Counted from the stretch's first letter, positions 35,309 to 55,061 are shown. The stretch is DNA of 64,000 nt from Candidatus Omnitrophota bacterium (GCA_029564765.1 JAKQPK010000004.1:27716-91715); one strand, 5' to 3'. Notes: a model not told the origin generated them from the letters alone. A program made the numbers and translations.

Positions 35309-35373
35309 TCACTAACTCCCTGCCTTTCTTTTTCGTATCGCTTAATAAATAAAAATAATCGTATATTGAATTT

Positions 35374-35426
35374 TTACTAATTCCCGATATAATGAATTGG
35401 GTCATTTCCATTCTCAGTTACTAATT
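35374..35426 (+). promoter_or_regulatory. two copies of TTACTAATT (35374-35382 and 35418-35426) flanking a TATAAT, upstream of pstS
   Basis: Exact 9-nt direct repeat 44 nt apart. Candidate regulator-binding sites. Confidence 0.3.
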
Positions 35427-35442
35427 GAAAGAATTTCGTCAA

Positions 35443-36305
35443 TGTTCACAAAACGACACGCGTTTCTGGTTTTTACGCTTTTAATATTCTGTACATCCTG
35501 CATTTTTAATCCACCCTCAAAAAATTCTTTGCAGATCAAAGGTTCGGACACAATGGTAAACCTAATACAGGCTTGGGCAGAGGATTTCATGTCCAAAGAC
35601 CCTGATGTGTTCATTGCTGTTACTGGCGGTGGTTCCGGAACAGGCATAGCCAGCTTGATCAATGGCACATGCGATATCGCGATGACGTCTCGCAACATCA
35701 AACCAAAAGAGATCAAGCTTGCTCAAAAACGCGGGATCGATCCTTTTGAGATCATTGCCGCCTTAGACGGCCTAGCCGTTGTCGTTCACCCTAAAAATCC
35801 AGTTAAAAAACTTACTATTGATCAGCTAGCTCAGATCTTTTCCGGTCATATCACTAATTGGAAAGATGTTGGCGGGATGGACCAAAGTATCGTTGTCCTT
35901 TCTAGGGAAGTAAATTCAGGGACACATATTTATTTTAAAGAACATGTTCTTCGGCAGAATAAAAAAGACTCGAAAGAAGAATTTGCTCCAACAGCGCTTT
36001 TGCTCTCATCGTCACAAGCCATCGCCGATGAAGTCGCGACAAATACAGGCGCAATAGGATATTACGGAATGGGTTATATTTCGCCAAAACATAAGGCGAT
36101 CGCCATTGCGCTTGATGAGCGTTCACCGTATGCGGATCCAACGATCGAAAATGTCATAAACCAGACTTATCCAATATCTAGGCCGCTATATTTGTACACA
36201 AAGGGTGAGCCTCAAGGCGCGATCAAGATGTTCATTGATTTTGCCCATTCACCGCAAGGGCAGGAGATAGTTTTGATCAATGATTTTGTTCCACTGCAGA
36301 AATAA
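35443..36305 (+). CDS. pstS: phosphate ABC transporter substrate-binding protein
   Basis: KGSDTMVNLIQAWAEDF...TGGGSGTGIASLINGTCDIAMTSR PstS signature. Start moved to MFTKRHAF with signal peptide. Confidence 0.85.
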
Positions 36306-36309
36306 TAAT

Positions 36310-37179
36310 ATGCGAAAGATCAAAGAATTTATTATTGAAAAGCTGATATTCTTCTGCGGCCTCGCGTCCATCTTTTTTGTTATCCTGATCTTCCTTTTCT
36401 TACTGAAGGAAGGGCTTTCCTTGCTGACGATCGTCGGCCCCTTTGAATTCCTTGCTGGAAAAAGCTGGTATCCGATCTCAGAACCGCCTCAGTTGGGTAT
36501 TTTACCATTGATCCTTGGCTCATTATTTGTGACTATTGGCGCGGCGATCATCTCTGTACCGATCGGGATAGCCTGCGCGGTCTATATCGCTGAGATCGCG
36601 CCCGCTAAGATCAAAGAGGTCCTTAAAGCGGGTATTGAGCTTTTAGCGGCGATCCCAAGCGTTGTGCTGGGGTTTATCGGCATGATGACCCTCGTTCCCT
36701 GGGTCAAGAATTTATTTGACATCCCCACAGGGTTAACTGCTTTTTCAGGTTCTATTATGCTCGCGTTCATGGCAATGCCAACGATCGTATCTATCGCCGA
36801 AGACGCGCTCTATTCTGTTCCGAAGTCTTATAAAGAAGGAGCTTTGGCTCTGGGGGCCACGCATTGGCAGACCATCTACCGCGTGATCCTGCCAGCGGCT
36901 AGTTCCGGGATCGTCGCGGCGGTCATGTTAGGTATCGGGCGAGTGATCGGAGAAACCATGGCAGTGATGATGATCACAGGCAACGCAGCAGCGATACCAA
37001 AAAGTATCCTGCAGCCCGTGAGAACATTGACGGCGACTATCGCTGCTGAAATGGGTGAGACCGTGGTCGGCAGTGAGCATTATTTTGCTTTGTTCGCGAT
37101 CGGCATTGTTTTATTCGTGATCAGCTTCGCGATCAATGTGACATCTGACTTTTTCTTGCATAAGGATCAAAGAGTATGA
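36310..37179 (+). CDS. pstC: phosphate ABC transporter permease PstC
   Basis: ABC permease with EAA-type loop; position in operon. Confidence 0.85.
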   Translation: MRKIKEFIIEKLIFFCGLASIFFVILIFLFLLKEGLSLLTIVGPFEFLAGKSWYPISEPPQLGILPLILGSLFVTIGAAIISVPIGIACAVYIAEIAPAKIKEVLKAGIELLAAIPSVVLGFIGMMTLVPWVKNLFDIPTGLTAFSGSIMLAFMAMPTIVSIAEDALYSVPKSYKEGALALGATHWQTIYRVILPAASSGIVAAVMLGIGRVIGETMAVMMITGNAAAIPKSILQPVRTLTATIAAEMGETVVGSEHYFALFAIGIVLFVISFAINVTSDFFLHKDQRV

Positions 37180-38021
37180 CATCACTTCAACGACAAAAGA
37201 TCGCATTTGCCCTTTTATTTCTCGCGAACCTTTTGGTCATTGTTCCGGTAGGATTGATCGTCTTCATTATCATCCAAAAAGGATGGCCGGCCATGACATG
37301 GCAGTTCATTACCGATATCCCACGCCAGGGAATGCGTGCCGGCGGCATCTTTCCCGCGATCGTGGGGACCATCTATTTGGTCTCTGGGGCTATCGTTTTC
37401 GCTTTACCCGTCGGTTTGCTGGCAGCGATCTATTTAAGTGAATACGCGAAAGACAACCTTTTAACACGCATCATCAAGCTCGCGATCGTTAACCTCGCGG
37501 GTGTTCCATCGGTCGTTTATGGACTTTTTGGCCTCGTTCTCTTTGTGTCTTTTTGCAAATTCGGCGCGTCGATCCTTTCTGGATCCTTGACACTTGGCAT
37601 TATGATATTGCCGATCATCATCACCGCGTCACGTGAGGCCTTAGAGAGCGTTCCTCATGTTTTTCGAGAGGTCAGCCTATCTCTTGGCGCGAGTAAATGG
37701 CAGACTATTCGCCACATTGTTCTGCCCAACGCCATCCCTGGAATTATTACCGGAACGATCCTGGGGATCGGCCGGGCCGCGGGGGAAACCGCGCCTATCC
37801 TTTTTACGGTAGCCGCTTTTTATCTGCCACGCCTTCCTTCGTCGGTTTTTGATCAGGTAATGGCCTTGCCGTATCACTTGTACGTGATCTCAACACAGGT
37901 CCCTAACGTTGATCCTAAGATCACCTATGGAACAGCGTTGGTTCTATTGATATTGGTGCTTTTTGTTAATTTGATCGCGATCATCATTCGCGCGCGATTT
38001 CGGAAGAAGAAAAAATGGTAA
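37176..38021 (+). CDS. pstA: phosphate ABC transporter permease PstA
   Basis: Second permease paralog, 4-nt overlap with pstC. Confidence 0.85.
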   Translation: MTSLQRQKIAFALLFLANLLVIVPVGLIVFIIIQKGWPAMTWQFITDIPRQGMRAGGIFPAIVGTIYLVSGAIVFALPVGLLAAIYLSEYAKDNLLTRIIKLAIVNLAGVPSVVYGLFGLVLFVSFCKFGASILSGSLTLGIMILPIIITASREALESVPHVFREVSLSLGASKWQTIRHIVLPNAIPGIITGTILGIGRAAGETAPILFTVAAFYLPRLPSSVFDQVMALPYHLYVISTQVPNVDPKITYGTALVLLILVLFVNLIAIIIRARFRKKKKW

Positions 38022-38761
38022 AGATCGATATCCAACGATTAAATATTTGGTTCGGGGCAGCCCAAGCGCTCAAGAATATCACCATGCAGGTGAAAAAAAA
38101 CGAGATCCTTTGCGCGATTGGCCCATCGAACAGCGGAAAAACATCATTCTTGCGCATGCTCAATCGCCTTAATGATCTTACGCTTAGCTTTCGTATGTCC
38201 GGCAGCGTTCTTTTGGATGGCCGCGATATCACAAAAATAGATATCGAGCTGATCCGCAAGAAGATCGGGATGGTGTTCGCGATGCCTTCGCCTTTGCCTT
38301 TATCCGTCTTCGACAATGTCGCATACGGGGTTCGCATGAGCGGTGTCCGTAATAAACACAGCCTCGAGGAGGCTGTGGAAACAGCCCTCAAGCAAGCGTA
38401 TCTTTGGCAAGAAATGAAGGATCGCCTGCATGAATCTGCTTTTAAGCTCTCAGGAGGGCAGCAGCAAAGACTTTGTATCGCTCGGACATTGGCTGTTCAG
38501 CCTGAAGTGATCTTGTTCGATGAACCATGTTCTGGCCTAGATCCGATCTCAACGGCAAAAGTGGAAGAAGCCATGCTAAAGTTGAAAAAAGATTATACGA
38601 TCATCCTTGTGACCAACAATGTCAAGCAGGCGGCTCGCGTCGGCGACCGAACAGCGTTCTTTCTGACCGGAGAACTGATCGAGCTCGATCAGACCGAAAA
38701 AATATTTACAGCGCCTTCTGACCGCCGCACGGATGATTATATTCGAGGGAGATTTGGTTGA
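38015..38761 (+). CDS. pstB: phosphate ABC transporter ATPase PstB1 with degenerate Q-loop and H-loop
   Basis: Walker A GPSNSGKT, signature LSGGQQQR and Walker B ILFDEPC are intact. Q-loop reads GMVFAMPSP (Gln to Ala) and H-loop reads LVTNN (His to Asn). Confidence 0.85.
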
Positions 38762-39507
38762 TGGCAAAGATCGAGATAAAAAACCTTGACCTATGGTATG
38801 GCGATTTTCAAGCGTTAAAAAATATCAATTTAGCGCTGGAAGAAAAACGCATCATCGCCGTTATCGGTCCATCCGGCTGTGGTAAATCCACGCTACTGCG
38901 TGTTTTTAATCGCATGAACGACCTTGTGGAAGGCATTAAAATTAAAGGCCAGTTCGTCATAGACGGTGAGAATATCCTGGACCAGAGGACCAACCTCGTG
39001 ACCCTTCGCAAGAAAGTGGGCATGGTCTTTCAACGCCCGAATCCTTTTCCGCTATCCATCTACGACAACCTTGTTTTTGGGCTTAAGGTCCACGGCATCA
39101 AACGCGACCTTGATCCATTCGTTGAGAAAAGTTTAAAAGCGGTCTTTCTTTGGGATGAGCTAAAAGATCGTCTAAACCGTTCTGCGTTTAGCTTGACGCT
39201 AGAGCAACGTCAACGCTTGTGCATCGCGCGCCTGATCGCTGTTAAACCGGATATCCTTTTGATGGATGAACCCTGTTCCGCCCTGGATCCACAATCAACG
39301 ACTGGCATCGAAGACCTTATGCGCGAGTTAAAAAAGAATTTCACGATCATCATTGTCACGCACAACATGCAACAGGCCGCCCGCGTCTCGGACGAAACGG
39401 GATTCATGCTGCTTGGAGAGCTTGTTGAATTCAATAAAACAGAGGTGATCTTTACAAAACCCCAAGATAGTCGGACCGAGGGTTATATCACAGGACGATA
39501 CGGTTAA
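38758..39507 (+). CDS. pstB: phosphate ABC transporter ATPase PstB2 with degenerate signature motif
   Basis: Walker [11 protein letters not shown]-loop GMVFQRPNP, Walker B LLMDEPC and H-loop VTHNM are intact. Signature reads LTLEQRQR instead of LSGGQQQR. Confidence 0.85.
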
Positions 39508-39516
39508 GGAGGCATC

Positions 39517-40200
39517 ATGCAAAGACATTTTGACGAAGATCTACGTAATTTGAACGCGAACATCATTAAAATGGCATCATTAGCAGAAGATGCCATTCAG
39601 AACGCCACGCGGGCGCTTAAAGACCAAGACCCGGCTTTGGCGCGTACTGTCATAAACAATGACCAACAGATCGATGAAATGGAGCTCTTCATTGAAGAGC
39701 AAGCGATCGACCTCTTGGCCCGTATGCAGCCAATGGCCAGCGACCTTCGTTTTATAACGACAGGAATGAAGATCAACGCGGAACTTGAACGTATCGCGGA
39801 TCTTGCTGTCAATATCGCCCATCGCGTCCTTGAGCTTTCGGGGATGCCGCATTTGAAGCCATTGGTCGATATCCCAAAACTTTCGGCACTGACCTCAAGC
39901 ATGGTCAAGAACGCGATCGATGCGTTCGTAAATCATGATGAAAGTATCGCGCGCAAGGTCATCCTTTCTGATTCTGAGGTCGACCAATTGAATAATGTTA
40001 TTCGTCAAGAGCTGGTCAATGACTACATGATCAAAGACAGCAAGACAGTGACCCGCGCCGTGCCTTTGCTTTTGATCGCGCGACACTTGGAAAGGATCGG
40101 CGATCACGCGACGAATATTGCGGAAGATGTCATTTATATGGTCCACGCCAAGATCGTGAAGCACCATCCTGAAAAGTTAGACGACGGACAATCCATTTAA
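39517..40200 (+). CDS. phoU: phosphate signaling complex protein PhoU
   Basis: Two PhoU repeats containing the conserved ExxxD-type motif (ELERIADLAVNIA, ERIGDHATNIAEDVIYM). Confidence 0.9.
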   Translation: MQRHFDEDLRNLNANIIKMASLAEDAIQNATRALKDQDPALARTVINNDQQIDEMELFIEEQAIDLLARMQPMASDLRFITTGMKINAELERIADLAVNIAHRVLELSGMPHLKPLVDIPKLSALTSSMVKNAIDAFVNHDESIARKVILSDSEVDQLNNVIRQELVNDYMIKDSKTVTRAVPLLLIARHLERIGDHATNIAEDVIYMVHAKIVKHHPEKLDDGQSI

Positions 40201-40212
40201 CGCGGAGGATCC

Positions 40213-41763
40213 ATGCCCACTTCTTTAGATCTTCAGGTCAAGCCGTTAGGTAAGAAGGCAGGCTTTGATAACGAAAAATACCTCTGCGAACAAGCCAATG
40301 AGATCCTCGAGCGCGTAAAGCGGTTCGATAACAAGCTTTATCTTGAGTTTGGCGGAAAGCTTTTGTTTGATTATCACGCTTCTCGTGTCTTACCGGGTTT
40401 TGACCCAAACGTCAAGATCAAACTCCTCAAGCGTCTTGAAAATGACGCGGACATTATCTTGTGTATCCACGCGGGCGATATTGAGCGACGAAAGATCCGC
40501 GCGGATTTTGGGATCACTTATGATGTCGACGCGTTAAAGCTGATCGATGACCTTAAGGACTGGGGGATCGATATCTGCGCGGTCGTGATCACTCGCTTCA
40601 ATCAACAACCTGCCGCGACCATTTTTAAGAACAAGCTTGAACGATTGGGGGTACGTGTTTACACGCACGCCTTCACGAAAGGATATCCGACGAATGTTGA
40701 CCTGATCGTTAGCGAAGAAGGTTACGGCGCGAATGAATATATCTCAACGACCAAGCGCCTTGTGATCGTGACCGGCCCAGGGCCGGGCAGCGGCAAACTT
40801 GCCACGTGCCTCTCACAGCTTTATCATGAACATAAACAAGGGATCAACGCGGGCTACGCGAAATTTGAAACATTCCCAATTTGGAGCATTCCGCTCAAGC
40901 ATCCCGTTAATGTCGCCTATGAATCCGCAACGGCTGACATCAAGGATTTTAATATGATCGATCCTTTTCATTTGCAAGCGTACGACAAACTGGCCATCAA
41001 TTACAATCGTGATGTGGAAGTATTCCCGGTGGTCAAACGTATCCTTGAAAAGATCACGGGTGATGAAATTTACCATTCGCCAACAGATATGGGAGTCAAT
41101 CGCGCAGGATTCGGCATTACCGATGATCAAGCGGTCCAGGAAGCCGCGTGCCAAGAGATCATCCGACGTTATTTTCGGTATAAATGTGAGTACGCGCTGG
41201 GCCTGGTCGATAAGGAATCCGTTGAGCGAGGAGAGCTGCTGATGAAGGAGATGAACATCAACACCAGTGATCGCAAGGTCGTCGAAGCCGCCCGAACGGC
41301 CGCGGAACAAGCGCAACAACAAGGCAAAGGCAATAAAGGGATATTTTGCGGGGCAGCTATCGAACTGGCCGATGGCCGTATCATCACGGGCAAGAATTCC
41401 TCGCTCATGCACGCGGCATCAAGCCTGATCTTAAACGCGCTCAAGGAATTGGCCGATGTCCCTGATAAGATCCCGCTATTGTCCAAAACATCCATTGACT
41501 CGATATCGAACCTGAAAAAAGATATTTTAAAGATGAAAACATTAAGCCTTGATCTAGATGAAGCCTTGATCAGCTTAAGTATTAGCGCGACAACAAGCCC
41601 TGTTTCACAACTGGCCTTAGAAAAGATCAGTGAATTACGTGGCTGCGAGATGCACATGACCCATATCCCAACGCCAGGGGACGAAGCTGGCTTACGCCGG
41701 TTAGGGATCAATCTGACAACAGATCCAAACCTATCGTCCAGCAGCCTCTGTGACTATTCTTAA
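40213..41763 (+). CDS. UPF0371/DUF1846-like protein of unknown function
   Basis: N-terminal FDNEKYL...LYLEFGGKLLFDYHASRVLPGFDPNVK resembles the UPF0371 family. Starts 13 nt after phoU. Confidence 0.5.
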   Translation: MPTSLDLQVKPLGKKAGFDNEKYLCEQANEILERVKRFDNKLYLEFGGKLLFDYHASRVLPGFDPNVKIKLLKRLENDADIILCIHAGDIERRKIRADFGITYDVDALKLIDDLKDWGIDICAVVITRFNQQPAATIFKNKLERLGVRVYTHAFTKGYPTNVDLIVSEEGYGANEYISTTKRLVIVTGPGPGSGKLATCLSQLYHEHKQGINAGYAKFETFPIWSIPLKHPVNVAYESATADIKDFNMIDPFHLQAYDKLAINYNRDVEVFPVVKRILEKITGDEIYHSPTDMGVNRAGFGITDDQAVQEAACQEIIRRYFRYKCEYALGLVDKESVERGELLMKEMNINTSDRKVVEAARTAAEQAQQQGKGNKGIFCGAAIELADGRIITGKNSSLMHAASSLILNALKELADVPDKIPLLSKTSIDSISNLKKDILKMKTLSLDLDEALISLSISATTSPVSQLALEKISELRGCEMHMTHIPTPGDEAGLRRLGINLTTDPNLSSSSLCDYS

Positions 41764-41764
41764 A

Positions 41765-42553
41765 ATGCGCAAAAGAATATTTTTATCCATACGCTCCTTT
41801 CTTTTTCTTTCGCTCTGCCTGGTGTTTTACGCATGCAGCCCCTCAAAACCAACAACGCCAAGTGTCATCTTTCAATCTTCTGTTATGGACGCGCTTTCTC
41901 AAGGTGTCTTTGAGGGGGATCTAACCTGCGCAGAGCTTTTGCAGCAAGGAGATTTTGGCCTTGGCACCTTCAATGACCTTGACGGCGAAATGATCGTTCT
42001 GGATGGCCAAGTCTATCAAGTCAAATCTGACGGGAGCGTCCTGAAGCCAGACCCATCAACACAACTGCCTTTCGCGACCGTGACATTCTTTAGGCCTGAT
42101 CAGAAGATCTCCTTGGATAAAGAACTGAGCTACGCTCAAATAAAAGACCTTTTGGATGCCGCTTTGCCGTTTAAGAATATCTTTTATGCTATCCGTATCG
42201 ACGGAAAATTCTCCCAGGTTACTGTGCGCAGTGTTCCTCCGCAGTGGAAGCCTTATCCCGATCTCGCTCAAGCCATAAGCGAACAAAGAATATTCCAGAA
42301 AAATGATCTTGCCGGGACCATCATCGGTTTTTGGTTCCCTCATTACGCGAAAAATATCAATGCCACCGGATATCATTTTCATTTCATTGATCGAACGCGA
42401 ACATTCGCCGGCCACTTACTGGACGCGCGATTGATATCCGCAACAGCATCGATCCAAAGCGTTTACAAACTGAATATTGCGTTACCAAAAACAGCGAACT
42501 TTGATAGTACCGACCTAACACAAGAACAACACGTCATAATACCTGAAAAATAG
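41765..42553 (+). CDS. alpha-acetolactate decarboxylase family protein with signal/lipoprotein peptide
   Basis: GDFGLGTFNDLDGEMIVLDGQVYQ and IRIDGKFSQVTVRSVP...TGYHFHFI align closely with ALDC. Hydrophobic N-terminus ends in a Cys. Confidence 0.8.
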   Translation: MRKRIFLSIRSFLFLSLCLVFYACSPSKPTTPSVIFQSSVMDALSQGVFEGDLTCAELLQQGDFGLGTFNDLDGEMIVLDGQVYQVKSDGSVLKPDPSTQLPFATVTFFRPDQKISLDKELSYAQIKDLLDAALPFKNIFYAIRIDGKFSQVTVRSVPPQWKPYPDLAQAISEQRIFQKNDLAGTIIGFWFPHYAKNINATGYHFHFIDRTRTFAGHLLDARLISATASIQSVYKLNIALPKTANFDSTDLTQEQHVIIPEK

Positions 42554-42556
42554 AAT

Positions 42557-43252
42557 ATGGATGATCACGCGGTCATTGCTGGGTCGGTCACGATCCGGCC
42601 TTATCATACGAGCGATCGTGACGCGCTACGGCGTATAAGCTGCGCGACAGCTTTTTTGGGCCTGCCCTTATCATTATTCGTTGATGATGATGTCATCGTC
42701 GCGGATATCCTGACGCGATACTACACGGACTTCGAACCGCGATCTTGCTTTGTTGCTGTCGTTGGGAATACCGTTGTTGGCTATATCATTGGATCAACGG
42801 ACACGAAAAAGGCTCGGCAGATCTTTATGCGGCAGATCATGATGCCCGCATTATGGCGCGCGGTCAGAAAAGGCATTTTCCTTAAGAAAAATGCCTTGCG
42901 ATTCCTTAGGCATCTTATGGTCAGCGTGATCAAAGGTGAATTCCGCGATCCGGATTTCTCGCGCCTCTATCCCGCGACCTTGCATATCAACATTGACAAG
43001 AACTTTCATCGTCATCGCATAGGGTCTAAATTGATCGCGCGATATCTGGAGTATCTGCAAAACGATCATATTGCCGGAGTGCATTTGGGCACGATCTCTT
43101 CAAGCGCTAAGGAATTTTTTATCAAGAATGGTTTTTCACTTTTATATAGCGGCCGTCGCTCATATTTATGCTATATTACCAAAGACATCGCGAACTATTA
43201 TATTCTAGGAAAAAACTCTCAGAACAAGTTAACGTATGACATTCTTCCGTAA
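42557..43252 (+). CDS. GNAT family N-acetyltransferase
   Basis: Acetyl-CoA-binding-like RHRIGSKLIARYLEY region. Confidence 0.55.
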   Translation: MDDHAVIAGSVTIRPYHTSDRDALRRISCATAFLGLPLSLFVDDDVIVADILTRYYTDFEPRSCFVAVVGNTVVGYIIGSTDTKKARQIFMRQIMMPALWRAVRKGIFLKKNALRFLRHLMVSVIKGEFRDPDFSRLYPATLHINIDKNFHRHRIGSKLIARYLEYLQNDHIAGVHLGTISSSAKEFFIKNGFSLLYSGRRSYLCYITKDIANYYILGKNSQNKLTYDILP

Positions 43253-44651
43253 GCTACGATTCAGTATCCTGATCAGCATCTTTTTAGTGCTTTTATTCAT
43301 TGCGCTAGGGGATTATCTTCGCCATCCTTCACGCCAGGCCTGGATCTCGACAACTCCCGCTCCAAGCACGGATCGCATCCTCATCCTTGCTCCTCATCCG
43401 GATGATGAAGTTTTAGGGTGCGCTGGCATCATTCAGCGCGCGCGACGTAACGGTGTCCCGGTGAAGATCGTTTTCTTAACCTATGGGGACAATAATCAAT
43501 GGTCCTTTCTTGTTTACCGAAAACACTTTGTCTTAATGCCCAAGGCCGTCCGCCTTATGGGTGAGATGCGCCGTCAGGAGGGAATTGAAGCAGGCAAGAT
43601 CTTAGGTGTTGATGAGCAAGACCTCATTTTTCTTGGCTACCCGGATTTTAAGACATTGAACATCTGGTATACCAATTGGGGTCAAAGTTCGCCGATCAAA
43701 AGCATGTTAACCCATGTTCGCGCTGTTCCATATCAAACAGCTTTCCGTCCCGGGGCTGAATATAAGGGCGAAGATATCTTAGAAGACCTAAAGTCGATCA
43801 TTCGTGATTTTAAACCAACAAAGATCTTTGTTTCTCATCCCGCGGACCATAATCCAGACCATCGATCCTTATACTTATTCACAAAAGTCGCGCTGTTCGA
43901 TCTTGAGAATGAGCTACGCCCAGCACTGAACCCCTATCTGATCCATTATAAGCATTGGCCGCGGCCTGCTGGTTATTATCCGCAAAGCAAGTTAGATCCA
44001 CCTCAAGCGCTTGCGGATGAAATCTCCTGGAGATCGATCACCCTGACATCTGATGAGATCGCGATCAAGCATTTGGCTATTCAAAAGCATCATTCCCAGT
44101 TCATCTCAAGCCCTGGATATCTTTTATCCTTCGTCAGGTCCCCGGAATTATTCGGTGATTTTCCAGATATCATCGTGAATAAAGATGCTTCCGGCCGAAC
44201 ACTGACCAAGGACAGGGAAGATGATCTGCGCCTTCCTCCTGAAGAGCTTGAGGATGAAGAGATCGCCTCCTTCGTTGGCATTGAAAAACGGTCCGTCTTC
44301 CTTGAAAATGATTGCCTCGTGATCACCTTGGCCCTTTCAAGGCCTTTAGGAAAGACCGTTGGCCTATCCCTTTTTACGTTTGGATATAAAAAAGATGTGC
44401 CGTTCAAGGATATGCCGAAGATCCGCATCCGCTTTGGAACACTGTGGCACAAGGTCTTTGACCAGCGCAAACAGATCAAAGGAAAAGGTGTTGTCATCAA
44501 GAGGAGCGCAAAAAAGATAACCGTTCGCATCCCGCTTGACTTATTAGGAAAACCTGAGAAGATATTCACAAGCGCCAATACGTATCTCGGCGCTGTTCCG
44601 CTCGATTGGGTGTCATGGCGTATTCTCGATCTGTCAGGGCAAAAACCATAA
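43236..44651 (+). CDS. PIG-L/LmbE family de-N-acetylase with N-terminal TM anchor and C-terminal extension
   Basis: LILAPHPDDEVLGCAG motif. About 200-aa extra C-terminal domain of unknown function. Confidence 0.7.
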   Translation: MTFFRKLRFSILISIFLVLLFIALGDYLRHPSRQAWISTTPAPSTDRILILAPHPDDEVLGCAGIIQRARRNGVPVKIVFLTYGDNNQWSFLVYRKHFVLMPKAVRLMGEMRRQEGIEAGKILGVDEQDLIFLGYPDFKTLNIWYTNWGQSSPIKSMLTHVRAVPYQTAFRPGAEYKGEDILEDLKSIIRDFKPTKIFVSHPADHNPDHRSLYLFTKVALFDLENELRPALNPYLIHYKHWPRPAGYYPQSKLDPPQALADEISWRSITLTSDEIAIKHLAIQKHHSQFISSPGYLLSFVRSPELFGDFPDIIVNKDASGRTLTKDREDDLRLPPEELEDEEIASFVGIEKRSVFLENDCLVITLALSRPLGKTVGLSLFTFGYKKDVPFKDMPKIRIRFGTLWHKVFDQRKQIKGKGVVIKRSAKKITVRIPLDLLGKPEKIFTSANTYLGAVPLDWVSWRILDLSGQKP

Positions 44652-44661
44652 AAGGAGGGAC

Positions 44662-45997
44662 CATGTTGCGTAAAATCGGCATTGGGATCATCAGCAGTTT
44701 TATCATTCTCACGGTCGTTGCAGAGGCAAAGGCAGAGGTAAAATTTAAATGGGGCCCTTATTTACGCGCGCGTTATGAATATTGGAAAAACTGGCGTGAC
44801 ATGGACAACACCCAGCTTGATAACCGTAGTTTCTTCAGGATCAAGACATCCCTCTGGGGACAAGCGGACCTTGATGAAAAATATTCTTTTTATTGCAAAT
44901 TAACGAATGAAACAAAGGCCTATACGTATTTCGCCCCTTCCAGTTCAAAACCCAGCGGAAAGACCGAAAAAGGCCTTCGTTACGATATTAATGAAGTTGT
45001 TTTTGACAATATATATTTTGATTTTAAGAAAGTCCTTGATGCCCCGGTCAACATCCGCTTGGGCCGCCAGGATCTTTTTGGGTATGGAGAGAACTTTCTT
45101 TTAGCGGACGGTACTCCCAACGACGGTTCCCGCACGTATTATTTTAACGCGATGAAAACGTCGTGGTCGATCAATGAGCGCAACACCTTTGACTTTATTT
45201 ATATCCGCAATCCAAAAGACGACACCTATTTGCCGATCATCAATGAAGACAAATCCCCCCAAAATTTGAACACGACCGATGAAGAAGGCTATGTTGGCTA
45301 TCTGCGCAATCGATCGATCCAGAATCTCGCGCTCGATGGATATTACATCTACAAACGTGAAGATGCAGATGGCGGCGTAGGGTACCAGTCCCAAAAAGGG
45401 ATCATTAACACGATCGGTTCTTTTGCCCGCTATGATTTTCCTACCTGGGCCATTAAAGGGCAGGCCGCATATCAGTTTGGTGATTATGGCGCGAATAGCC
45501 GTGAAGCCCTGGGTGGATATGGGTATGTTGAAAAGAACTTCAAGGATATGCGCTGGACACCAACAGCGAAAGCAGGATTTATCTATCTTTCTGGTAATAA
45601 AGCAGGAACAGATAAGAATGAAGCCTGGGATCCTTTATTCTCTCGCTATCCATGGTTTTCGGAGCTCTACAGTTTGAGCATGGCAGCGGAAACAGGCATT
45701 GTTGACTACTGGACGAACATTTCCGCTTATTGCGCGGAATTCGCGGTTAAACCAACAGAAAAAACAAAGCTTTCTTTAAACTACTATTTTCTGCGTGCCA
45801 ATGAGCAAGTGGCCGCGAACACGATCTTTTCCGGCAGAGGGAAGACGCGAGGGCATCTTCCTGAGGTGCGTGTCGATTACGCTTTGACAAAATCAATATC
45901 AATGTATGTTCTCGCTGAATATCTGATCCCTGGGAACTTTTACAAGAATGATGACCCAGGATTATTTGTTCGTACGGAATTCCAGATCAAATTCTAA
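44662..45997 (+). CDS. outer-membrane beta-barrel protein, alginate-export (AlgE)-like porin
   Basis: AAGGAGGG RBS, signal peptide, alternating beta-strand pattern, C-terminal ...EFQIKF with terminal Phe. Confidence 0.5.
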
Positions 45998-46031
45998 TAT
46001 CCTTGATCACAGCTAAAGAGGTATTCTGCAT

Positions 46032-46364
46032 ATGAAAAAAAGCGTCAACACCATCCGCGGGATCGCGCTGGATCTTTCAAGCCTCGTTTCTTATCAGAAA
46101 AATTCTGTGATCAGCCGTGAGATCATCAAAGGCGAAAGTGGAACAGTAACGCTTTTCGCCTTTGACAAAAATGAAGGATTAAGCGAGCACACAGCTCCGT
46201 TCGATGCGATGGTCATTGTTTTGGACGGCTCCGTAAAGATCTGCATCAGCAAAAAACCGCATCTTCTTAAAAAAGGTCAGTCCATTATTATGCCGGCGCA
46301 TCAACCGCACAGCCTTAAAGCTATCAAACGATTTAAAATGTTATTGATTCTCATAAAAAAATAA
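46032..46364 (+). CDS. cupin domain protein
   Basis: Cupin motifs G(X)5HXH-like (SEHTAPFDAMVIVLDGS) and PAHQPHSL. TAATG-coupled to the response regulator. Confidence 0.6.
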   Translation: MKKSVNTIRGIALDLSSLVSYQKNSVISREIIKGESGTVTLFAFDKNEGLSEHTAPFDAMVIVLDGSVKICISKKPHLLKKGQSIIMPAHQPHSLKAIKRFKMLLILIKK

Positions 46365-47068
46365 TGTTTTCTTCGCCACAAAAGATCCTCATCGTCGAAG
46401 ACGATCGAAATATATCCAAACTTGTTCGCTATAATCTAGAAAAAGCTGACCTCGAATGCCTGACGTGCATCTGCGGGGAAGAAGCGTTCGAGATACTAGA
46501 TCAAAAACCGATCGATCTGATCATTTTGGATATTATGCTCCCGAAAATGGACGGCCTTTCTGTCTGCCGTGAGATCCGCAACAACGAACGATTAAAGCAT
46601 ATACCGATCGTAATACTCACCGCGAAAGGCGAGGAGATCGATAGGGTCGTCGGCCTTGAGTTGGGCGCGGATGATTATATGGTCAAACCCTTTAGCCCTC
46701 GCGAGCTTGTCTTAAGGGTCAAAGCGATCTTGCGCCGCAAAAAGACCGTTGAAACAAAAAAAGATATCGTGTCGATCGGCGATATTTGCGTGGACATCCC
46801 TCGCCATAAGGCTACGGTCAAAGATAAAGAGATCGAATTGACCGCGATGGAGTTCAAGCTCCTGACAGTGCTCATGGAGCGACGCGGACGCGTTCAGACG
46901 CGCGACACACTGCTTGCGGATGTCTGGGGGATGAGCTCTGAGATCTATACACGCACGATCGATACCCATGTCAAACGCCTTCGGCAAAAGTTAGGCAAGG
47001 CCGGAAAGCGCATTGAGACCATAGTTGGCGTTGGATACAAGATGCGAGATGACATCGATGCGGATTAA
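46364..47068 (+). CDS. OmpR/PhoB-family response regulator (probable PhoB/PhoP of this Pho locus)
   Basis: Receiver domain (ILIVEDD...LDIMLPKMDG) plus winged-helix output domain. Its neighbours are Pho-related genes. Confidence 0.8.
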   Translation: MFSSPQKILIVEDDRNISKLVRYNLEKADLECLTCICGEEAFEILDQKPIDLIILDIMLPKMDGLSVCREIRNNERLKHIPIVILTAKGEEIDRVVGLELGADDYMVKPFSPRELVLRVKAILRRKKTVETKKDIVSIGDICVDIPRHKATVKDKEIELTAMEFKLLTVLMERRGRVQTRDTLLADVWGMSSEIYTRTIDTHVKRLRQKLGKAGKRIETIVGVGYKMRDDIDAD

Positions 47069-48830
47069 GCTGCATTGGAAGCTGACTCTGTTCTTTTGCT
47101 CAGCGGCACTCTTAGGGCTTGTTGCCGGTTACTTTCTTCTAACGACCCCTCTTCAGGATTATCTTGAAAAAAGCCTAAAGAAAAACCTTCACGCCCAGCT
47201 ATCCCTTGGGCGTAAATTTCTTGTCTCCCAAATAGATCTTTTAAGGGACGCGACCCCTTTTGACGCGATCTCTGATGATCTGGGCCGTCAATTGAACGTC
47301 CGGGTCACGATCATTGATAATAGCGGAACCGTATTAGGGGACAGTGATCTTGACCAAGAGAAATTAAGGACCGCTGAGAACCATAGCGATCGCCAAGAGA
47401 TCCAGCAAGCTGCCAAAACGGGTTTCGGCTTTATCAAGCGATACAGCTATACGATCAAGGATTATCTGCTATACGTCGCCATCCCTTTTTCCTATAACGA
47501 AAAAAATGCGTTTTTGCGATTTGCCATCCCGCTTACCGATGTTAGGGCCCTTCAAGAAAAATTCCAGCTAACGATCGCGCTCACACTATTACTCGTTTTT
47601 ATCCTAAGCCTTGCGCTGACTTTCTTGATATCCAGCATTGTTTCACGTCCTCTGTCGCAGATGGCCAACATCGCCAAGGCAATGGCGCAAGGGGATTTTT
47701 CCATAAAGCCGTCCATCTACTCGACCGATGAGATAGGGGACTTGGCTTCTGCCTTGACACATATGTCCGATGAGATCAACAATAAGATCGAACGGATCCG
47801 TCACGAAAGCGCTAAATTAGATGCTGTGCTCTCAAGCATGTTCGAGGGGATCATGGTCGTCAACAGCCGCGGCGAGATCATTTTAATGAACCCATCCTTA
47901 AAAAAGCTGTTCTTTGTGGACACGGAACCTTTAGGCCGCAAGCCGATCGAAGCGATCCGCAACGCGCTTGTCCAACAGGTCACAGATCAAATACTGGGAC
48001 TAAGCCAAAATTTTATCTCTCAAGAAGTCCAGATCACTCATCCCAACGACAAGATTTTGCGCGTCAACGGGACGCCGATCATCAGGGATAATCGGCTTGA
48101 AGGCGCGGTATTGGTTTTCCACGACATTACTGAACTGCGGCGCCTGGAAAGGATCCGCCAAGAGTTCGTCGCCAATGTTTCACATGAATTACGCACACCC
48201 ATCTCCAGCATCAAAGGTTACGCGGAGACCTTACTATCAGGAGCCATCGAAGATAAGGAGAACGCGAAAGATTTCATTAATATTATTTATCAGGACAGTA
48301 ACCGCCTGGCCAGCCTGATCAGCGACCTTTTGGACCTGGCTAAGATCGAATCTGAAAAATTACAAATGGAATTCCTGCCGGTTGAGATCAAGCCCTTAGT
48401 CCTGCGCTGCATCAGTATCCTTAAAAAAACGATCGATGAAAAACAATTAACCGTCTCCTGCGAGATCTCTGAAAAACTGCCTAAGGCCATGGCTGATGAC
48501 GCGCGTTTGTCGCAGGTACTGTTGAACTTATTGGATAATGCTGTCAAATACACTCCTCAAAAAGGAACGATCAGGATCGGCGCGCAAGTAGCCGAGAAAT
48601 ATATCCAGATCGATATTTCTGATACGGGTATCGGCATCCCACAAGAAGATATTCCGCGTATTTTTGAACGATTTTATCGTGTCGACAAAGCCCGCTCGCG
48701 GGAATTAGGCGGCACCGGCCTTGGCCTTTCTATCGCCAAGCACATCGTCCTATCGCACGGCGGCCAGATCTGGGCCCACTCCAAACCCGGCGAAGGAACG
48801 ACCTTTAGCTTCACCATCCCTGAAGCATAA
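47049..48830 (+). CDS. sensor histidine kinase (PhoR-like) with periplasmic sensor, HAMP, PAS and HisKA/HATPase
   Basis: H-box FVANVSHELRTPISSI, N-box LLDNAVKYT and G-boxes DTGIGIP / GGTGLGLSI. Confidence 0.8.
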   Translation: MTSMRIKLHWKLTLFFCSAALLGLVAGYFLLTTPLQDYLEKSLKKNLHAQLSLGRKFLVSQIDLLRDATPFDAISDDLGRQLNVRVTIIDNSGTVLGDSDLDQEKLRTAENHSDRQEIQQAAKTGFGFIKRYSYTIKDYLLYVAIPFSYNEKNAFLRFAIPLTDVRALQEKFQLTIALTLLLVFILSLALTFLISSIVSRPLSQMANIAKAMAQGDFSIKPSIYSTDEIGDLASALTHMSDEINNKIERIRHESAKLDAVLSSMFEGIMVVNSRGEIILMNPSLKKLFFVDTEPLGRKPIEAIRNALVQQVTDQILGLSQNFISQEVQITHPNDKILRVNGTPIIRDNRLEGAVLVFHDITELRRLERIRQEFVANVSHELRTPISSIKGYAETLLSGAIEDKENAKDFINIIYQDSNRLASLISDLLDLAKIESEKLQMEFLPVEIKPLVLRCISILKKTIDEKQLTVSCEISEKLPKAMADDARLSQVLLNLLDNAVKYTPQKGTIRIGAQVAEKYIQIDISDTGIGIPQEDIPRIFERFYRVDKARSRELGGTGLGLSIAKHIVLSHGGQIWAHSKPGEGTTFSFTIPEA

Positions 48831-48852
48831 GCTTTTTCTTCCTTTTTCATAT

Positions 48853-48868
48853 TTCACGCAAAGTTCAC
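48853..48868 (+). promoter_or_regulatory. Pho-box-like direct repeat TTCAC-N6-TTCAC (11-bp periodicity)
   Basis: TTCACgcaaagTTCACacac read directly downstream of phoR and upstream of small ORF, porin and pstS2. Confidence 0.35.
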
Positions 48869-48958
48869 ACACTCTCCATATCACCGTGACAGCTTCTTTT
48901 TATACTCAAAGCACCATATTCATTGCGAATAACGTAGGGTGACGAGAGGAGGTGAATC

Positions 48959-49156
48959 ATGCACCAGGAAATCCAGATATTTTCAGCACTGGATCAAGAC
49001 ATATTTATGAGCCAACTACGTTCGCAAATCCATAAACTTAATACAATTATTTTTAATCTGGAAAATCAAAGGACAGATTTCTCATATGCGGCAATGCTCG
49101 TAAAAGAGATCGAAAAGAATTTACGGCGTATCCGCAAAACATGGCTGGAAAACTAA
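48959..49156 (+). CDS. small hypothetical protein (65 aa) with strong SD
   Basis: GAGGAGGTG-6 nt-ATG. Predicted helical, no recognisable motif. Confidence 0.45.
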   Translation: MHQEIQIFSALDQDIFMSQLRSQIHKLNTIIFNLENQRTDFSYAAMLVKEIEKNLRRIRKTWLEN

Positions 49157-49169
49157 ACGGAGGAATTTC

Positions 49170-50468
49170 ATGAAAAAATTATTTATGATCGCAGTGCTTG
49201 CATTGCTGAGCGTATGCGTCATGGCGCCGCAGGCAAAAGCAGGCGAAGTCGACATGCTTATCCAAAAGCTTGTCGAAAAAGGCATCTTGACTCCTGGCGA
49301 AGGAGCCACCTTGATTGTGGAAACCAAGGAAGAGGTTAAAAAACAACTGGCTTCCGGTAAATCCGAAAGCGTACCCTCATGGGTTCAAACCATGAAGCTT
49401 AAAGGTGATTTTCGCTTTCGCTATCAATTTGACAGACACACAAGCACATCGAACGAAAACCGTGCTCGTATGCGCGCTCGTGTCGGCGTTGAAGCAAAAG
49501 CCAATGATAAGATGAAAGTCGGTATTGGAATCGCGACCGGTAAAGTAAATGATCCACGCTCAACGAATATTACCTTAGGTCAGACCGGAAGCAAAGACTC
49601 CACTTTCAATACGAACACCCCAGGCTCATTTAAAAATATTATCTTAGATTATGCCTACGGTGAGTATGCTTTTAACAATAACCTCTCGCTTATAGCTGGT
49701 AAGTTTAGCAATCCATTATGGCGCGTCACAGACCTTCTCTGGGATGGAGACATCAACCCTGAAGGTGTTGCCGTAAACTTAACACACAAATTATCCACAT
49801 CTATAGATCTATTCATGAACAATTTATTGTTCATCTTAGATGAAAATACATCCGTAGAATCAAAATATCCGATGATGGGTGCAATTCAGCCTGGATTTAA
49901 CTACGCGATAAGCGATTCTTTGAAATTAAAAGGTGCTGTCACGGGTTATTTCTTTAGCGGTGTTGAAAAACGTGCATCATTTAGAAACCGCTCAACCAAT
50001 ACACTTAACGGCAGTGTTTATAAGTATAACTATAATTCCGTTAACCCAAGCATGGAATTCAGCATCAAAGAACCGTTTGGCGGCATTGTTCCTTCCGCGT
50101 CTATCTTCAGTGAAGGCGTTTTCAATGTTTCCGAAGATGTTGATAATGCCCGTGGCGGTTTTGCTGCTGGCGTAAAGTTTGGAGCGGAAAGAGTCAGCAA
50201 TAAAGGCGACTGGCAGGCAAGACTGATCTATGGCAAATTAAGCCGTGATGCCTGGCTTGACATCTTCCCGGATTCAGATCGTTACAGCGGAAGAACTAAT
50301 ATGAAAAGTTATGAAGCGATCTTTTCCTATGGGTTAGGAAAGAACACATCGCTTGATTTTGATTATTACTATAGCCAAGACTTGAACAAGGTTGCCACCT
50401 CAAGCTCAGGCCCAGCAGGATATAGGCCGTCCCATATGTTGCAGGTTGACTGGAATCTAAAGTTCTAA
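49170..50468 (+). CDS. outer-membrane porin, candidate phosphate-selective porin
   Basis: Signal peptide, beta-barrel pattern, C-terminal WNLKF. Immediately precedes pstS2. Confidence 0.5.
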   Translation: MKKLFMIAVLALLSVCVMAPQAKAGEVDMLIQKLVEKGILTPGEGATLIVETKEEVKKQLASGKSESVPSWVQTMKLKGDFRFRYQFDRHTSTSNENRARMRARVGVEAKANDKMKVGIGIATGKVNDPRSTNITLGQTGSKDSTFNTNTPGSFKNIILDYAYGEYAFNNNLSLIAGKFSNPLWRVTDLLWDGDINPEGVAVNLTHKLSTSIDLFMNNLLFILDENTSVESKYPMMGAIQPGFNYAISDSLKLKGAVTGYFFSGVEKRASFRNRSTNTLNGSVYKYNYNSVNPSMEFSIKEPFGGIVPSASIFSEGVFNVSEDVDNARGGFAAGVKFGAERVSNKGDWQARLIYGKLSRDAWLDIFPDSDRYSGRTNMKSYEAIFSYGLGKNTSLDFDYYYSQDLNKVATSSSGPAGYRPSHMLQVDWNLKF

Positions 50469-50486
50469 CCATGAAAGGATAATGAA

Positions 50487-51299
50487 ATGAAAACTCTTAA
50501 TAAAATTCTGCTTACCGGGCTTGCGGTCTTGAGTATCGCAATGCCTGCTTTTGCAGAAAAGATCGTTGTTACGGGCTCAACAACAGTTTTACCGCTTTCA
50601 CAAAAAGCCGCGGAAGTTTTTATGCAAAACAATCCTAATGCGGATATTTCTATACGCGGCGGGGGTTCCGGTGTTGGGATAGCTTCCATCATTGATGGTA
50701 GTTGTGATATTGCTAATTCATCACGACCGATCAGAGATGTTGAGCTTCAAAAAGGTGCTTCCAACGGCCGCGACATCAAGGCACACATTGTTGCTATGGA
50801 TGGGATCGCGATCGTTGTCCACCCTTCGAACGGGATCAGCGCTTTGACCAAATCCCAAGTAAGAGATATTTATACCGGGAAAATTTCCAATTGGTCTCAA
50901 GTTGGAGGAAAAAACGAAAAGATCGTCGCCATCTCTCGTGATACCTCCAGCGGAACCTTTGAAGCGTTCATGGAGCTTGTTTTGGATAAGCAAAAGGTGC
51001 GTCCTGATGCCATTATGCAAGCATCAAATCAGGCGATCGCAACAACTGTCGCACGTACGCCAAATGCGATCGGCTACGTTGGACTTGGCTTTCTTTCCGG
51101 TGATATTAAAGCGGTTACAATCGACGGTGTAATGCCTTCCAAGGAAACGGTTTTACTTGGGAAATATAAGGTTGGACGTCCGCTGTTCATGTATACCAAC
51201 GGCGCTCCTAAAGGCCTCGCTAAAGATTATCTTGACTTCATCAAAAGTGCTCAAGGACAAAGCATTGCTGATGAGTTAGGGTATGTTGGATTAAAATAA
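50487..51299 (+). CDS. pstS: phosphate ABC transporter substrate-binding protein, second copy
   Basis: TGSTTVLPLSQKAAEVF...GGGSGVGIASIIDGSCDIANSSR. Confidence 0.85.
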   Translation: MKTLNKILLTGLAVLSIAMPAFAEKIVVTGSTTVLPLSQKAAEVFMQNNPNADISIRGGGSGVGIASIIDGSCDIANSSRPIRDVELQKGASNGRDIKAHIVAMDGIAIVVHPSNGISALTKSQVRDIYTGKISNWSQVGGKNEKIVAISRDTSSGTFEAFMELVLDKQKVRPDAIMQASNQAIATTVARTPNAIGYVGLGFLSGDIKAVTIDGVMPSKETVLLGKYKVGRPLFMYTNGAPKGLAKDYLDFIKSAQGQSIADELGYVGLK

Positions 51300-51314
51300 G
51301 AAAACAAGCCACCA

Positions 51315-51355
51315 GACAAAGGAGCTTTGGTTTTCTAAAACAAAGCTCCTTTGTC
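51315..51355 (+). other. perfect 15-bp stem-loop between pstS2 and pstC2
   Basis: GACAAAGGAGCTTTG-gttttctaaaa-CAAAGCTCCTTTGTC read directly, followed by TCTTAAAATTTT. Confidence 0.65.
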
Positions 51356-51381
51356 TCTTAAAATTTTGTATAATAAGTATT

Positions 51382-52272
51382 ATGTCATTATTTCGTCTTA
51401 AAGAAAAGATCATACAAGGCGTTTTTACTGTTTTGGCATTCTCATCATTGCTTTTTCTTGTTGGGATCATCTTTGTCCTCTTTAAAGAAGGCCTTCCAAT
51501 CTTTAAGGATGTTAAAATATCAGATTTCTTATTTGGCCGTTTTTGGTATCCTACATACGAACCTCCAGAGTTCGGCGTCTTGCCATTGATCGTTGGATCA
51601 TTCTATGTTTCCTTAGGGGCAATGTTCGTGTGTGTTCCTCTGGGTATCGGAAGCGCTCTTTATATCAATGAGATGGCAAGCTACAAGCAAAAAGCTATCT
51701 TGAAGCCTCTCATTGAGATCCTGGCAAGCGTTCCATCTATTATCTATGGCTTCTTTGCTATGGCTATCCTCGCGCCATTCTTGCAGAAAACGTTCAACAT
51801 CCCTATCGGTCTTTGCACCCTGAACGCAAGTATTATTTTAGGGGTAATGGCAACGCCGACGGTTTGTAGCCTTGCTGAAGATGCCCTCAGCTATGTCCCG
51901 CGCTCCTTTCGCGAAGCTTCTTTTGCCGTAGGCGCGACCCGCTGGCAAACATTGATCAAGGTTGTTATTCCAGCCGCAGGATCAGGGATATCGACTGCTG
52001 TGATCCTTGGTATGAGCCGCGCGATCGGAGAAACCATGACCGTCTTGATGGCCGCTGGAGGAGCGGCGATCATTCCCACATCTATTTTTGATCCTGTCCG
52101 CCCAATGACCGCCGCCATTGCCGCGGAAATGGGAGAAGCTCCTGTAGGGGGAGACCATTATCATGCGCTTTTTGCCATTGCATTGGCTTTATTTTTAATA
52201 ACATTCTTTTTTAATATTCTTGCGGAGATCATTAGCCGGCGTTTTCGCATCAAATTGGGATTATCCGGATGA
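51382..52272 (+). CDS. pstC: phosphate ABC transporter permease PstC, second copy
   Basis: Paralogous to 36310-37179. Confidence 0.85.
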   Translation: MSLFRLKEKIIQGVFTVLAFSSLLFLVGIIFVLFKEGLPIFKDVKISDFLFGRFWYPTYEPPEFGVLPLIVGSFYVSLGAMFVCVPLGIGSALYINEMASYKQKAILKPLIEILASVPSIIYGFFAMAILAPFLQKTFNIPIGLCTLNASIILGVMATPTVCSLAEDALSYVPRSFREASFAVGATRWQTLIKVVIPAAGSGISTAVILGMSRAIGETMTVLMAAGGAAIIPTSIFDPVRPMTAAIAAEMGEAPVGGDHYHALFAIALALFLITFFFNILAEIISRRFRIKLGLSG

Positions 52273-53877: not shown

Positions 53878-53878
53878 A

Positions 53879-54268: not shown

Positions 54269-54276
54269 GAGAAAAA

Positions 54277-55019: not shown

Positions 55020-55061
55020 AGGCATTTTAACAGAACTTTTACAAATATTAATGGAGGATGT

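Follow-up and report, generated by a model that had tools for sequence, protein, structure and literature searches.

We analysed a 64,000-nt stretch of DNA from a Candidatus Omnitrophota bacterium (the window), in which six plus-strand genes at 40213-46364 (the block) lie between phoU1, the last gene of a phosphate-uptake (pst) operon, and the gene for a PhoB-like response regulator. Our reading, which we consider probable, is that these genes form a co-directional, lineage-restricted string made up of four or more units that are unrelated in function, set behind the uptake operon in a compact Omnitrophota genome, and that any co-expression is probably a matter of position and not of a dedicated phosphate-starvation pathway. 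The evidence comes mainly from a comparison covering about 170 related loci, in which the order of the block is retained only among close relatives. A preliminary description of the window had proposed a phosphate-starvation response module of six uncharacterised or unexpected genes, possibly for envelope or glycoconjugate remodelling and export.

Gene layout and spacing

Open reading frame (ORF) finding and profile searches identified six genes in the block, all on the plus strand. In order, they encode a DUF1846/UPF0371 protein that is a candidate PyrJ ortholog (40213-41763; Pfam, NCBIfam and PDB matches); an acetolactate decarboxylase (ALDC) homolog with an N-terminal signal peptide (41765-42553; PF03306, TIGR01252 and PDB 6j92); a GNAT protein of the O-GlcNAcase-acetyltransferase-like (SsAT/OgpAT) subfamily (42557-43252; weak Pfam match, family profile); a PIG-L/LmbE-family zinc de-N-acetylase, predicted to be exported, with a C-terminal CBM9/DOMON-like beta-sandwich (43236-44651); an AlgE-like Alginate_exp outer-membrane beta-barrel of 18 strands (44663-45997; Pfam, structure model); and a single-domain cupin of 110 aa (46032-46364; Cupin_2), whose stop codon overlaps the response regulator start. 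The six genes, their families and their place between phoU1 and the Pho regulators agree with the preliminary description. Its label of uncharacterised genes does not fit UPF0371/DUF1846, for which a PyrJ function has been reported in a preprint (see below).

Junction lengths were computed from gene-caller starts. The gap from phoU1 to the DUF1846 gene is 12 nt and holds a GGAGGA ribosome-binding site, the later junctions within the block are 1, 3, -17, 11 and 34 nt, and the cupin gene overlaps the response regulator gene (-1 nt). The gaps are thus as short as had been described, with a measured range of -17 to 34 nt inside the block. For ALDC and the porin the ORF finder called GTG/TTG starts, and the real ATG starts are probably further downstream.

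Tight packing is not peculiar to the block. In the window, 58 of the 63 genes are on the plus strand, and 42 of the 54 same-strand junctions (78%) are at most 35 nt long, with a median of 3.5 nt. Because operon-like spacing is this common throughout the window, spacing alone does not discriminate a functional operon from genome compaction. In compact co-directional genomes such as those of Omnitrophota, where 78% of junctions look operonic, such spacing can be misleading as evidence of function. Base composition over the block shows nothing anomalous, and when 35000-50000 was searched for repeats of the kind that flank a mobile insertion, only short matches at chance level appeared. The PIG-L protein is identical to an NCBI protein from a Candidatus Omnitrophota MAG, and the locus is also found on metagenome contigs from several samples.

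Neighbourhood comparison across loci

For PIG-L, we examined 80 genome loci whose PIG-L is 37-60% identical to that of the window, with flanks of up to 10 kb searched by TBLASTN using all window proteins. For DUF1846, we examined 80 metagenome loci from other Omnitrophota (61-73% identity) and searched 8 kb. None of the 80 DUF1846 loci has phoU, pstS/C/A, ALDC, GNAT, PIG-L, porin or cupin genes within 8 kb, and none of the 80 PIG-L loci has DUF1846, ALDC or cupin genes within 10 kb. Genuine pst/phoU genes are present within 10 kb in 2 of the 80 PIG-L loci, L018 (phoU, pstB) and L037 (pstSCAB). These counts speak against a conserved phosphate-starvation module. An Alginate_exp homolog occurs in one PIG-L locus of the 80, 8 kb away and 23% identical. 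Outside one clade, each component of the block has its own context; the comparison splits the apparent module into parts with separate histories.

The order of the block is retained only at PIG-L identities of at least 67%, and is gone at 61% and in the 160 wider loci. Three further lineages share a common backbone with the window (67-78% PIG-L identity, 86-93% DUF1846 identity), with many indels. In L085/L086 the order is SNF, Fer4, pstSCABB, phoU, DUF1846, ALDC, (DUF2062), DUF3108, GNAT, PIG-L, porin, cupin and giant proteins. In L087 it is AcrB, a 98-aa ORF, SNF, pstSCABB, phoU, DUF1846, ALDC, PIG-L, porin, two oxidoreductases, cupin and PG_binding. L172 begins with TrkH, TrkA, SNF, PhoU_div, PHO4 (a PiT-type transporter) and DUF1846, and continues with a cytidine/dCMP deaminase, ALDC, DUF2062, GNAT, PIG-L, porin, cupin and PG_binding. 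At 61% PIG-L identity, L173 has GNAT, PIG-L, PG_binding, Na_Ca_ex and ALDC, without porin or cupin. Neighbourhood conservation of UPF0371 and of the PIG-L/porin pair, which had been suggested as a check, is therefore found in close relatives and disappears in wider loci.

The junction between the transporter genes and DUF1846, 11-28 nt long, is kept in the window and in the three related lineages. In L172 the slot between SNF and DUF1846, held by pstSCABB-phoU in the window, L085 and L087, is filled by PhoU_div and PHO4 (L172:4435-7642), which, judged by family, are a functionally analogous, non-homologous system at the same locus. Absence of co-occurrence with pst/pho genes, which the preliminary description had named as a finding that would count against its module, is accordingly the pattern outside one family-level clade and does not apply within it, where a transporter lies upstream of DUF1846.

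Two observations concern ORFs of the backbone without Pfam matches. In the closest relative, two huge ORFs follow the cupin gene (L085:13307-21425); one encodes 1540 aa, and the other, cut by the locus end, exceeds 1783 aa. In the window, a 98-aa ORF (33428-33724) lies right after AcrB, as it does in L069, L081 and L087 (47-54% identity).

Upstream operon and transcription signals

The operon upstream of the block (35442-40200, plus strand; Pfam, NCBIfam) consists of pstS1, pstC1, pstA1, a tandem pstB pair and phoU1, with matches to PBP_like_2, two BPD_transp_1 and two ABC_tran domains and, for PhoU, to TIGR02135 at 215.9 bits (cutoff 130). Its internal gaps range from -7 to 9 nt. The tandem pstB genes (38015-39507) are about 50% identical to each other, and the duplication is also seen in L085, L087 and the distant L018.

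A sigma-70-like promoter, TTGAAT-N16-TATAAT, lies upstream of pstS1 on the plus strand (35366-35393; 10 of 12 consensus matches), and TTGAAT/TTGAAA-N16-TATAAT is retained upstream of pstS in L085 and L087. A full consensus -35/-10 is unusual for an activator-dependent Pho promoter. The pstS1 promoter is followed by a ATTTCCATTC-like element that is conserved in three lineages, namely L085, L087 and that of the window. The promoter at 35366 is likely to be the start of a long transcription unit. Nowhere between pstS1 (35442) and the 3' end of the kinase gene (48830) is a gap larger than 34 nt, and there is no terminator-like hairpin at any block junction; because of these two features, the block is probably read through from the pst operon promoter, which makes co-transcription plausible.

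The lack of a terminator after phoU1, noticed earlier, extends to every junction of the block, and the number of terminator-like hairpins in 35-50 kb is at the level of shuffled sequence (17 versus 16.8). Weak plus-strand matches at 42311, 43148, 44142 and 45058 are all intragenic. Between phoU1 and UPF0371 we found neither a strong terminator nor an independent promoter, the combination that was to have spoken against a shared transcript. A consensus scan found 16 promoter-like sites compared with 22.8 in shuffled sequence, with weak sites inside the block at 40799, 42762, 43176 and 44281.

No Pho box (TTCAC-N6-TTCAC, TTHACA-N5-TTHACA or the E. coli consensus) was found upstream of pstS1 or in the block, these patterns being of the E. 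coli/B. subtilis type, which may not be the PhoB site of Omnitrophota. Allowing at most one mismatch, TTHACA-N5-TTHACA occurs on the plus strand of the Pho region at two places only, 48853-48869 and 55027-55043 (after phoU2). The first is a Pho-box-like direct repeat, TTCACgcaaagTTCACa (the TTCACgcaaagTTCACA site), in an 11-bp register within the 128 nt that follow the kinase gene. Both are intergenic, in the two gaps at the borders of the second Pho cassette, and the window-wide count of such matches is at chance; we regard them as candidate response-regulator sites and as a lead only. An Rfam scan of the entire window gave zero families at gathering score.

The DUF1846 and ALDC genes

The DUF1846 product has both domains of its family (PF08903, 562 bits; PF20921 or DUF1846_C, 183 bits) and scores 764 bits against NCBIfam NF010184 (cutoff 631). 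It matches PDB 7f00 from Streptococcus pneumoniae over its full length (E = 2.7e-157, residues 14-507 on 4-488), and likewise 3bh1 (E = 1.1e-153). The DUF1846 proteins are 73-86% identical Omnitrophota-wide, a conservation that is, on these values, of housekeeping grade. In S. pneumoniae, the family member Spd_0310 is reported to show synthetic lethality with pyrG and rescue by cytidine; it reportedly makes CTP from UTP with ammonia and was renamed PyrJ (preprint, bioRxiv 10.1101/2024.09.24.614635). An earlier proposal for a DUF1846 family protein was hemin binding (PMC9238395).

There is no pyrG within the window. Among the 80 DUF1846 loci, a glutamate dehydrogenase-like gene is a neighbour in 7 and a carbamoyl-phosphate synthase-like gene in 5, and a beta-CASP-like gene is another weakly recurrent neighbour; all three were identified by inspecting representative sequences. 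In L172 a cytidine/dCMP deaminase gene (L172:7651-8097) adjoins DUF1846. These neighbours are consistent with pyrimidine and ammonia metabolism, that is, with the role of an ammonia-dependent CTP synthase. The gene context supports the recent claim of a second type of CTP synthase, here in a protein that is highly conserved in an uncultured phylum.

The ALDC product scores 276 bits against PF03306 and 261.6 bits against TIGR01252, above the equivalog cutoff of 180.65. Its N-terminus is a signal peptide that begins MRKRIFLSIRSFLFLSLCLVFYAC. In the alignment with PDB 6j92 (E = 1.6e-58) the H-x-H...H zinc motif is matched, YHFHF...GH against YHEHF...GH, and residues 32-259 align with the Brevibacillus brevis enzyme 4bt2 (E = 2.5e-56).

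The GNAT and PIG-L genes

On its own the GNAT protein has a weak Pfam match, but all 23 of its 23 family members match PF00583. The family profile, compared with PDB sequences, finds 4bmh (1.4e-27), 3zj0 (1.4e-16) and residues 715-895 of human OGA (9e-5). The family alignment shows an insertion of about 50 residues in the GNAT core. In SsAT, a large insertion shapes a tunnel-like acceptor pocket that fits a small molecule (PMC3919268), and the OgpAT gene adjoins a gene for a GH84 O-GlcNAcase (PMC3814719).

In the 471-residue PIG-L protein, the PIG-L domain spans residues 49-219; a hydrophobic anchor precedes it at the N-terminus and an extra domain follows at the C-terminus. The fold is of the LmbE type and carries the HPDD and HxxDH metal/catalytic motifs of CE14 enzymes, and the catalytic and metal residues are invariant across 23 homologs. 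Because the N-termini of the homologs carry a signal peptide, a lipobox or a membrane anchor, we infer that the window protein is exported. Fold comparison assigns the C-terminal domain to the CBM9/DOMON-like beta-sandwiches; together with the 7f00 match of UPF0371, this supplies the structural identification that the preliminary description had called for. When 1.84 billion representatives were searched with the C-terminal domain alone, it turned up in only some 320 clusters (50% identity), nearly all of them C-termini of proteins with the same architecture, or fragments thereof.

GNAT and PIG-L are likely the sole genes of the block that behave like a functional pair. A GNAT gene adjoins PIG-L in 26 of the 80 PIG-L loci, always on the same strand, 12 times upstream and 14 times downstream. 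The recurrent pairing of an O-GlcNAcase-type GNAT with an LmbE-family deacetylase that is predicted to be exported gives a genomic handle on the role of this acetyltransferase subfamily.

We considered several clues to the substrate of PIG-L and rejected them. A role in thiol biosynthesis, as a BshB, MshB or Mca deacetylase, does not fit, since the scores are far under the equivalog cutoffs (BshB2 46.8 versus 195, BshB1 45.8 versus 182, Mca 21.6 versus 277, MshB 19.7 versus 224) and the predicted export is unlike those enzymes. A PG_binding_1 lipoprotein, which might point to peptidoglycan, is a neighbour in the close clade only (L087, L172 and L173), and BLASTP and hidden Markov model searches found PG_binding_1 near PIG-L in 0 of the 80 genome loci. 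Neighbouring Lnt, LpxL-like and SecA genes were set aside as a clue to a lipid pathway, as they belong to a fixed syntenic block in one lineage (about 17 loci), which we read as inherited synteny. That arrangement, in a single Omnitrophota lineage, is SecA, Lnt, (CDF), PIG-L, a PF04008 'adenosine-specific kinase', an LpxL-like acyltransferase and BioY, without GNAT (L036, L047-L049, L051, L052, L054, L055, L057, L061, L067, L072, L074, L075 and L082, around position 10001 in each).

Rare fusions, P0071 and P0096 (682 aa), join an N-terminal ICMT/PEMT-type membrane methyltransferase and a further span to the full PIG-L and C-terminal domain; they weakly favour a catalytic domain that is membrane-proximal and faces the periplasm. 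In the distant L038, PIG-L and GNAT are immediately followed by a PPK2 gene whose product is 44% identical to the window PPK2 (L038:7431).

The porin and cupin genes

The porin matches Alginate_exp (PF13372) at 54.2 bits (cutoff 25.2). Its structure model is an 18-stranded barrel, for which the top Foldseek match is AlgE (3rbh, E = 8e-16, TM-score about 0.65). Homologs with 52-57% identity occur in three distant Omnitrophota (L169, L170 and L171; porin at 8001), which share one array of Symport_access, an SSF symporter, the Alginate_exp porin, IorA, IorB, an AMP-binding (phenylacetate-CoA-ligase-like) ligase and a repeated ACT. Because these homologs adjoin an SSF Na+/solute symporter, the porin appears to be of an uptake rather than an export type, and the array suggests that AlgE-fold porin homologs are tied to the import of solutes and to the fermentation of aromatic amino acids. 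An AlgE-fold barrel apparently partnered with an inner-membrane symporter suggests import.

No polymer synthase, co-polymerase or modification genes were found around the block in the window or beside the L169-L171 porins. With this context, and with no synthase, glycosyltransferase or polymerase gene in the block, the proposed export role is not borne out. The cupin matches PDB 3rns (9.9e-25) and 1yhf (SPy1581; 1.8e-19), both structural-genomics proteins.

The second Pho cassette

Downstream of the block lie genes for a PhoB-like response regulator and a PnpS/PhoR-like histidine kinase (46364-48830, plus strand; NCBIfam). The kinase scores 448.7 bits against PnpS NF046044, above the cutoff of 400, and the response regulator 236 bits against PhoB TIGR02154, under its cutoff. 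They are followed on the same strand (48959-54942) by a 65-aa ORF, Porin_5, pstS2, pstC2, pstA2, pstB2, an LMWPc phosphatase/ArsC-like gene and phoU2. The 65-aa ORF (48959-49156), between the kinase gene and Porin_5, has a strong Shine-Dalgarno sequence and no family match, and was called as a gene on each of three independent contigs from this species.

This cassette of 8.6 kb (46364-54942) is absent after the cupin gene in L085, L087 and L172. In L087 an ortholog of window 55062-55526 directly follows the cupin (TBLASTN), and in L172 a PG_binding gene is in that position. Because the cupin directly abuts the downstream gene in L087 and L172, we interpret 46364-54942 as an indel peculiar to this species. 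The place of the block between phoU and Pho regulators, correct for the window, is thus not a conserved position. A gene for a PPK2 polyphosphate kinase (56929-57804) lies 2 kb downstream of phoU2.

Weighing the explanations

In the reading we favour, the array would be transcribed by read-through from the sigma-70 promoter upstream of pstS1. Its first unit would be a housekeeping PyrJ-type ammonia-dependent CTP synthase (DUF1846) and its second a secreted or lipid-anchored ALDC; in the third, we infer that the cytoplasmic GNAT acetylates an amino-sugar-type compound, and that the exported PIG-L de-N-acetylates an envelope or periplasmic glycan bearing N-acetylglucosamine (GlcNAc); the fourth would be an uptake-type AlgE-fold porin followed by a small cupin. 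Several observations weigh against such a string of unrelated units. In the window and in three related lineages, DUF1846 comes immediately after a phosphate transporter, which belongs to one of two non-homologous kinds (Pst/PhoU or PiT/PhoU_div). This linkage could be due to selection rather than inherited synteny; differential loss from an ancestral cluster with both transporters accounts for it equally well. Some distant PIG-L loci are near phosphorus genes, namely L018 (phoU, pstB), L037 (pstSCAB) and L038 (PPK2). GNAT is beside PIG-L in about a third of loci and is absent there in L087, and the consensus scan may miss internal promoters. It is conceivable, if unlikely, that GNAT and PIG-L form an undescribed two-compartment Omnitrophota/PVC envelope system, in which acetylation would be cytoplasmic and a GlcNAc-bearing glycan or glycolipid would be de-N-acetylated in the periplasm, and that this was captured with PyrJ and the uptake porin into a phosphate-transporter unit in which envelope modification and CTP supply track phosphate.

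If the block were a phosphate-starvation module under the adjacent PhoB/PhoR-type system, remodelling or exporting an envelope glycoconjugate, one could point to the two Pst operons and the PnpS/PhoR-type kinase that flank it, to the missing terminator after phoU, to the transporter found ahead of DUF1846 here and in three related lineages despite a change of type, to the predicted export and sugar-binding-type domain of PIG-L, and to PPK2, near the block in the window and beside PIG-L and GNAT in L038. We nevertheless think this quite improbable, given that pst/phoU genes are near 0 of 80 DUF1846 and 2 of 80 PIG-L loci, that the cassette with the regulators is an indel peculiar to this species, that the porin's partners elsewhere are uptake and fermentation genes, and that the block has no glycosyltransferase or synthase. 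No Pho-box-like repeat of the E. coli or B. subtilis type was found upstream of pstS1 or in the block, and the full consensus -35/-10 of pstS1 is atypical for activator-dependent Pho promoters in general. The first gene of the block would moreover be a CTP synthase (preprint, bioRxiv 10.1101/2024.09.24.614635). More narrowly, PIG-L and the AlgE-like barrel might be a periplasmic de-N-acetylase and outer-membrane exporter for a GlcNAc exopolysaccharide, like PgaB/PgaA or the alginate system. Their genes stand side by side, separated by 11 nt, in the window and in three close relatives, AlgE is the best fold match of the porin, and PIG-L is predicted to be exported with a CBM-like domain; but within 10 kb the sole Alginate_exp homolog among 80 PIG-L loci is 8 kb off and 23% identical, the porin is gone from the locus at 61% PIG-L identity, its homologs elsewhere adjoin an SSF symporter, and genes for a synthase, a co-polymerase or a TPR scaffold are absent nearby, which together leave this pairing very improbable indeed. 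We give somewhat more credit, while still judging it less than probable, to transcription of the block independently of pst from internal promoters that the scan does not recognise, the juxtaposition then having no regulatory consequence. A housekeeping-grade gene such as DUF1846 (73-86% identity phylum-wide) presumably requires steady expression, weak promoter-like sites do occur at 40799, 42762, 43176 and 44281, and the promoters of Omnitrophota may depart from the consensus used in the scan. Set against this, promoter-like sites are rarer than in shuffled sequence (16 versus 22.8), the junctions are short or overlapping and carry Shine-Dalgarno sequences, and no terminator-like site is found at them.

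Comparison with known systems

The window resembles Pst-PhoU operons and PhoBR (PnpRS) regulons in its pstSCAB-phoU order, its PnpS-type kinase and a second pst operon behind a porin. It differs from Pst-PhoU operons in that the array runs on after phoU with six unrelated genes and no terminator, in the tandem duplication of pstB, and in having no recognisable Pho box of the E. coli or B. subtilis type upstream of pstS1. Unlike PhoBR regulons, it has its regulator pair where the array ends (3'), in a cassette without a counterpart there in close relatives.

The DUF1846 product is homologous to S. pneumoniae PyrJ over its full length and shares both Pfam domains. The Omnitrophota protein is likened to PyrJ by sequence, and the functional report is one preprint on the pneumococcal protein. 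The window gene sits after phoU, a linkage not found in the 80 other DUF1846 loci. The ALDC product resembles the AldB type of B. brevis in scoring above the TIGR01252 equivalog cutoff and in aligning to 4bt2. The B. brevis enzyme is synthesised with a signal peptide. The window gene differs in not being beside acetolactate synthase or butanediol dehydrogenase genes, and its possible lipobox is non-canonical.

To our knowledge, the known LmbE/PIG-L (CE14) members (MshB, BshB/BC1534, archaeal diacetylchitobiose deacetylase and teicoplanin Orf2*) are cytoplasmic and single-domain, whereas the window PIG-L has a signal peptide or anchor and a private CBM9/DOMON-like domain. Its GNAT partner has a core interrupted by a large insertion, as in SsAT (4BMH; PMC3919268), and shares with OgpAT (3ZJ0) a gene that adjoins that of a GlcNAc-processing-family enzyme, which for OgpAT is GH84 (PMC3814719). 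In contrast to the O-GlcNAcase-acetyltransferase homologs, the partner in the window is a de-N-acetylase, predicted to be exported, and not a glycoside hydrolase.

The porin recalls AlgE and the PgaA-PgaB pair in its 18-strand barrel, in having AlgE as its best fold match, and in the position of its gene beside that of a predicted periplasmic deacetylase. It is 12-13% identical to AlgE. The window locus, unlike those of the AlgE and PgaA-PgaB pairs, is without nearby polymer synthase genes, and the homologs of the porin are instead encoded between a symporter and IorAB/PaaK-like genes.

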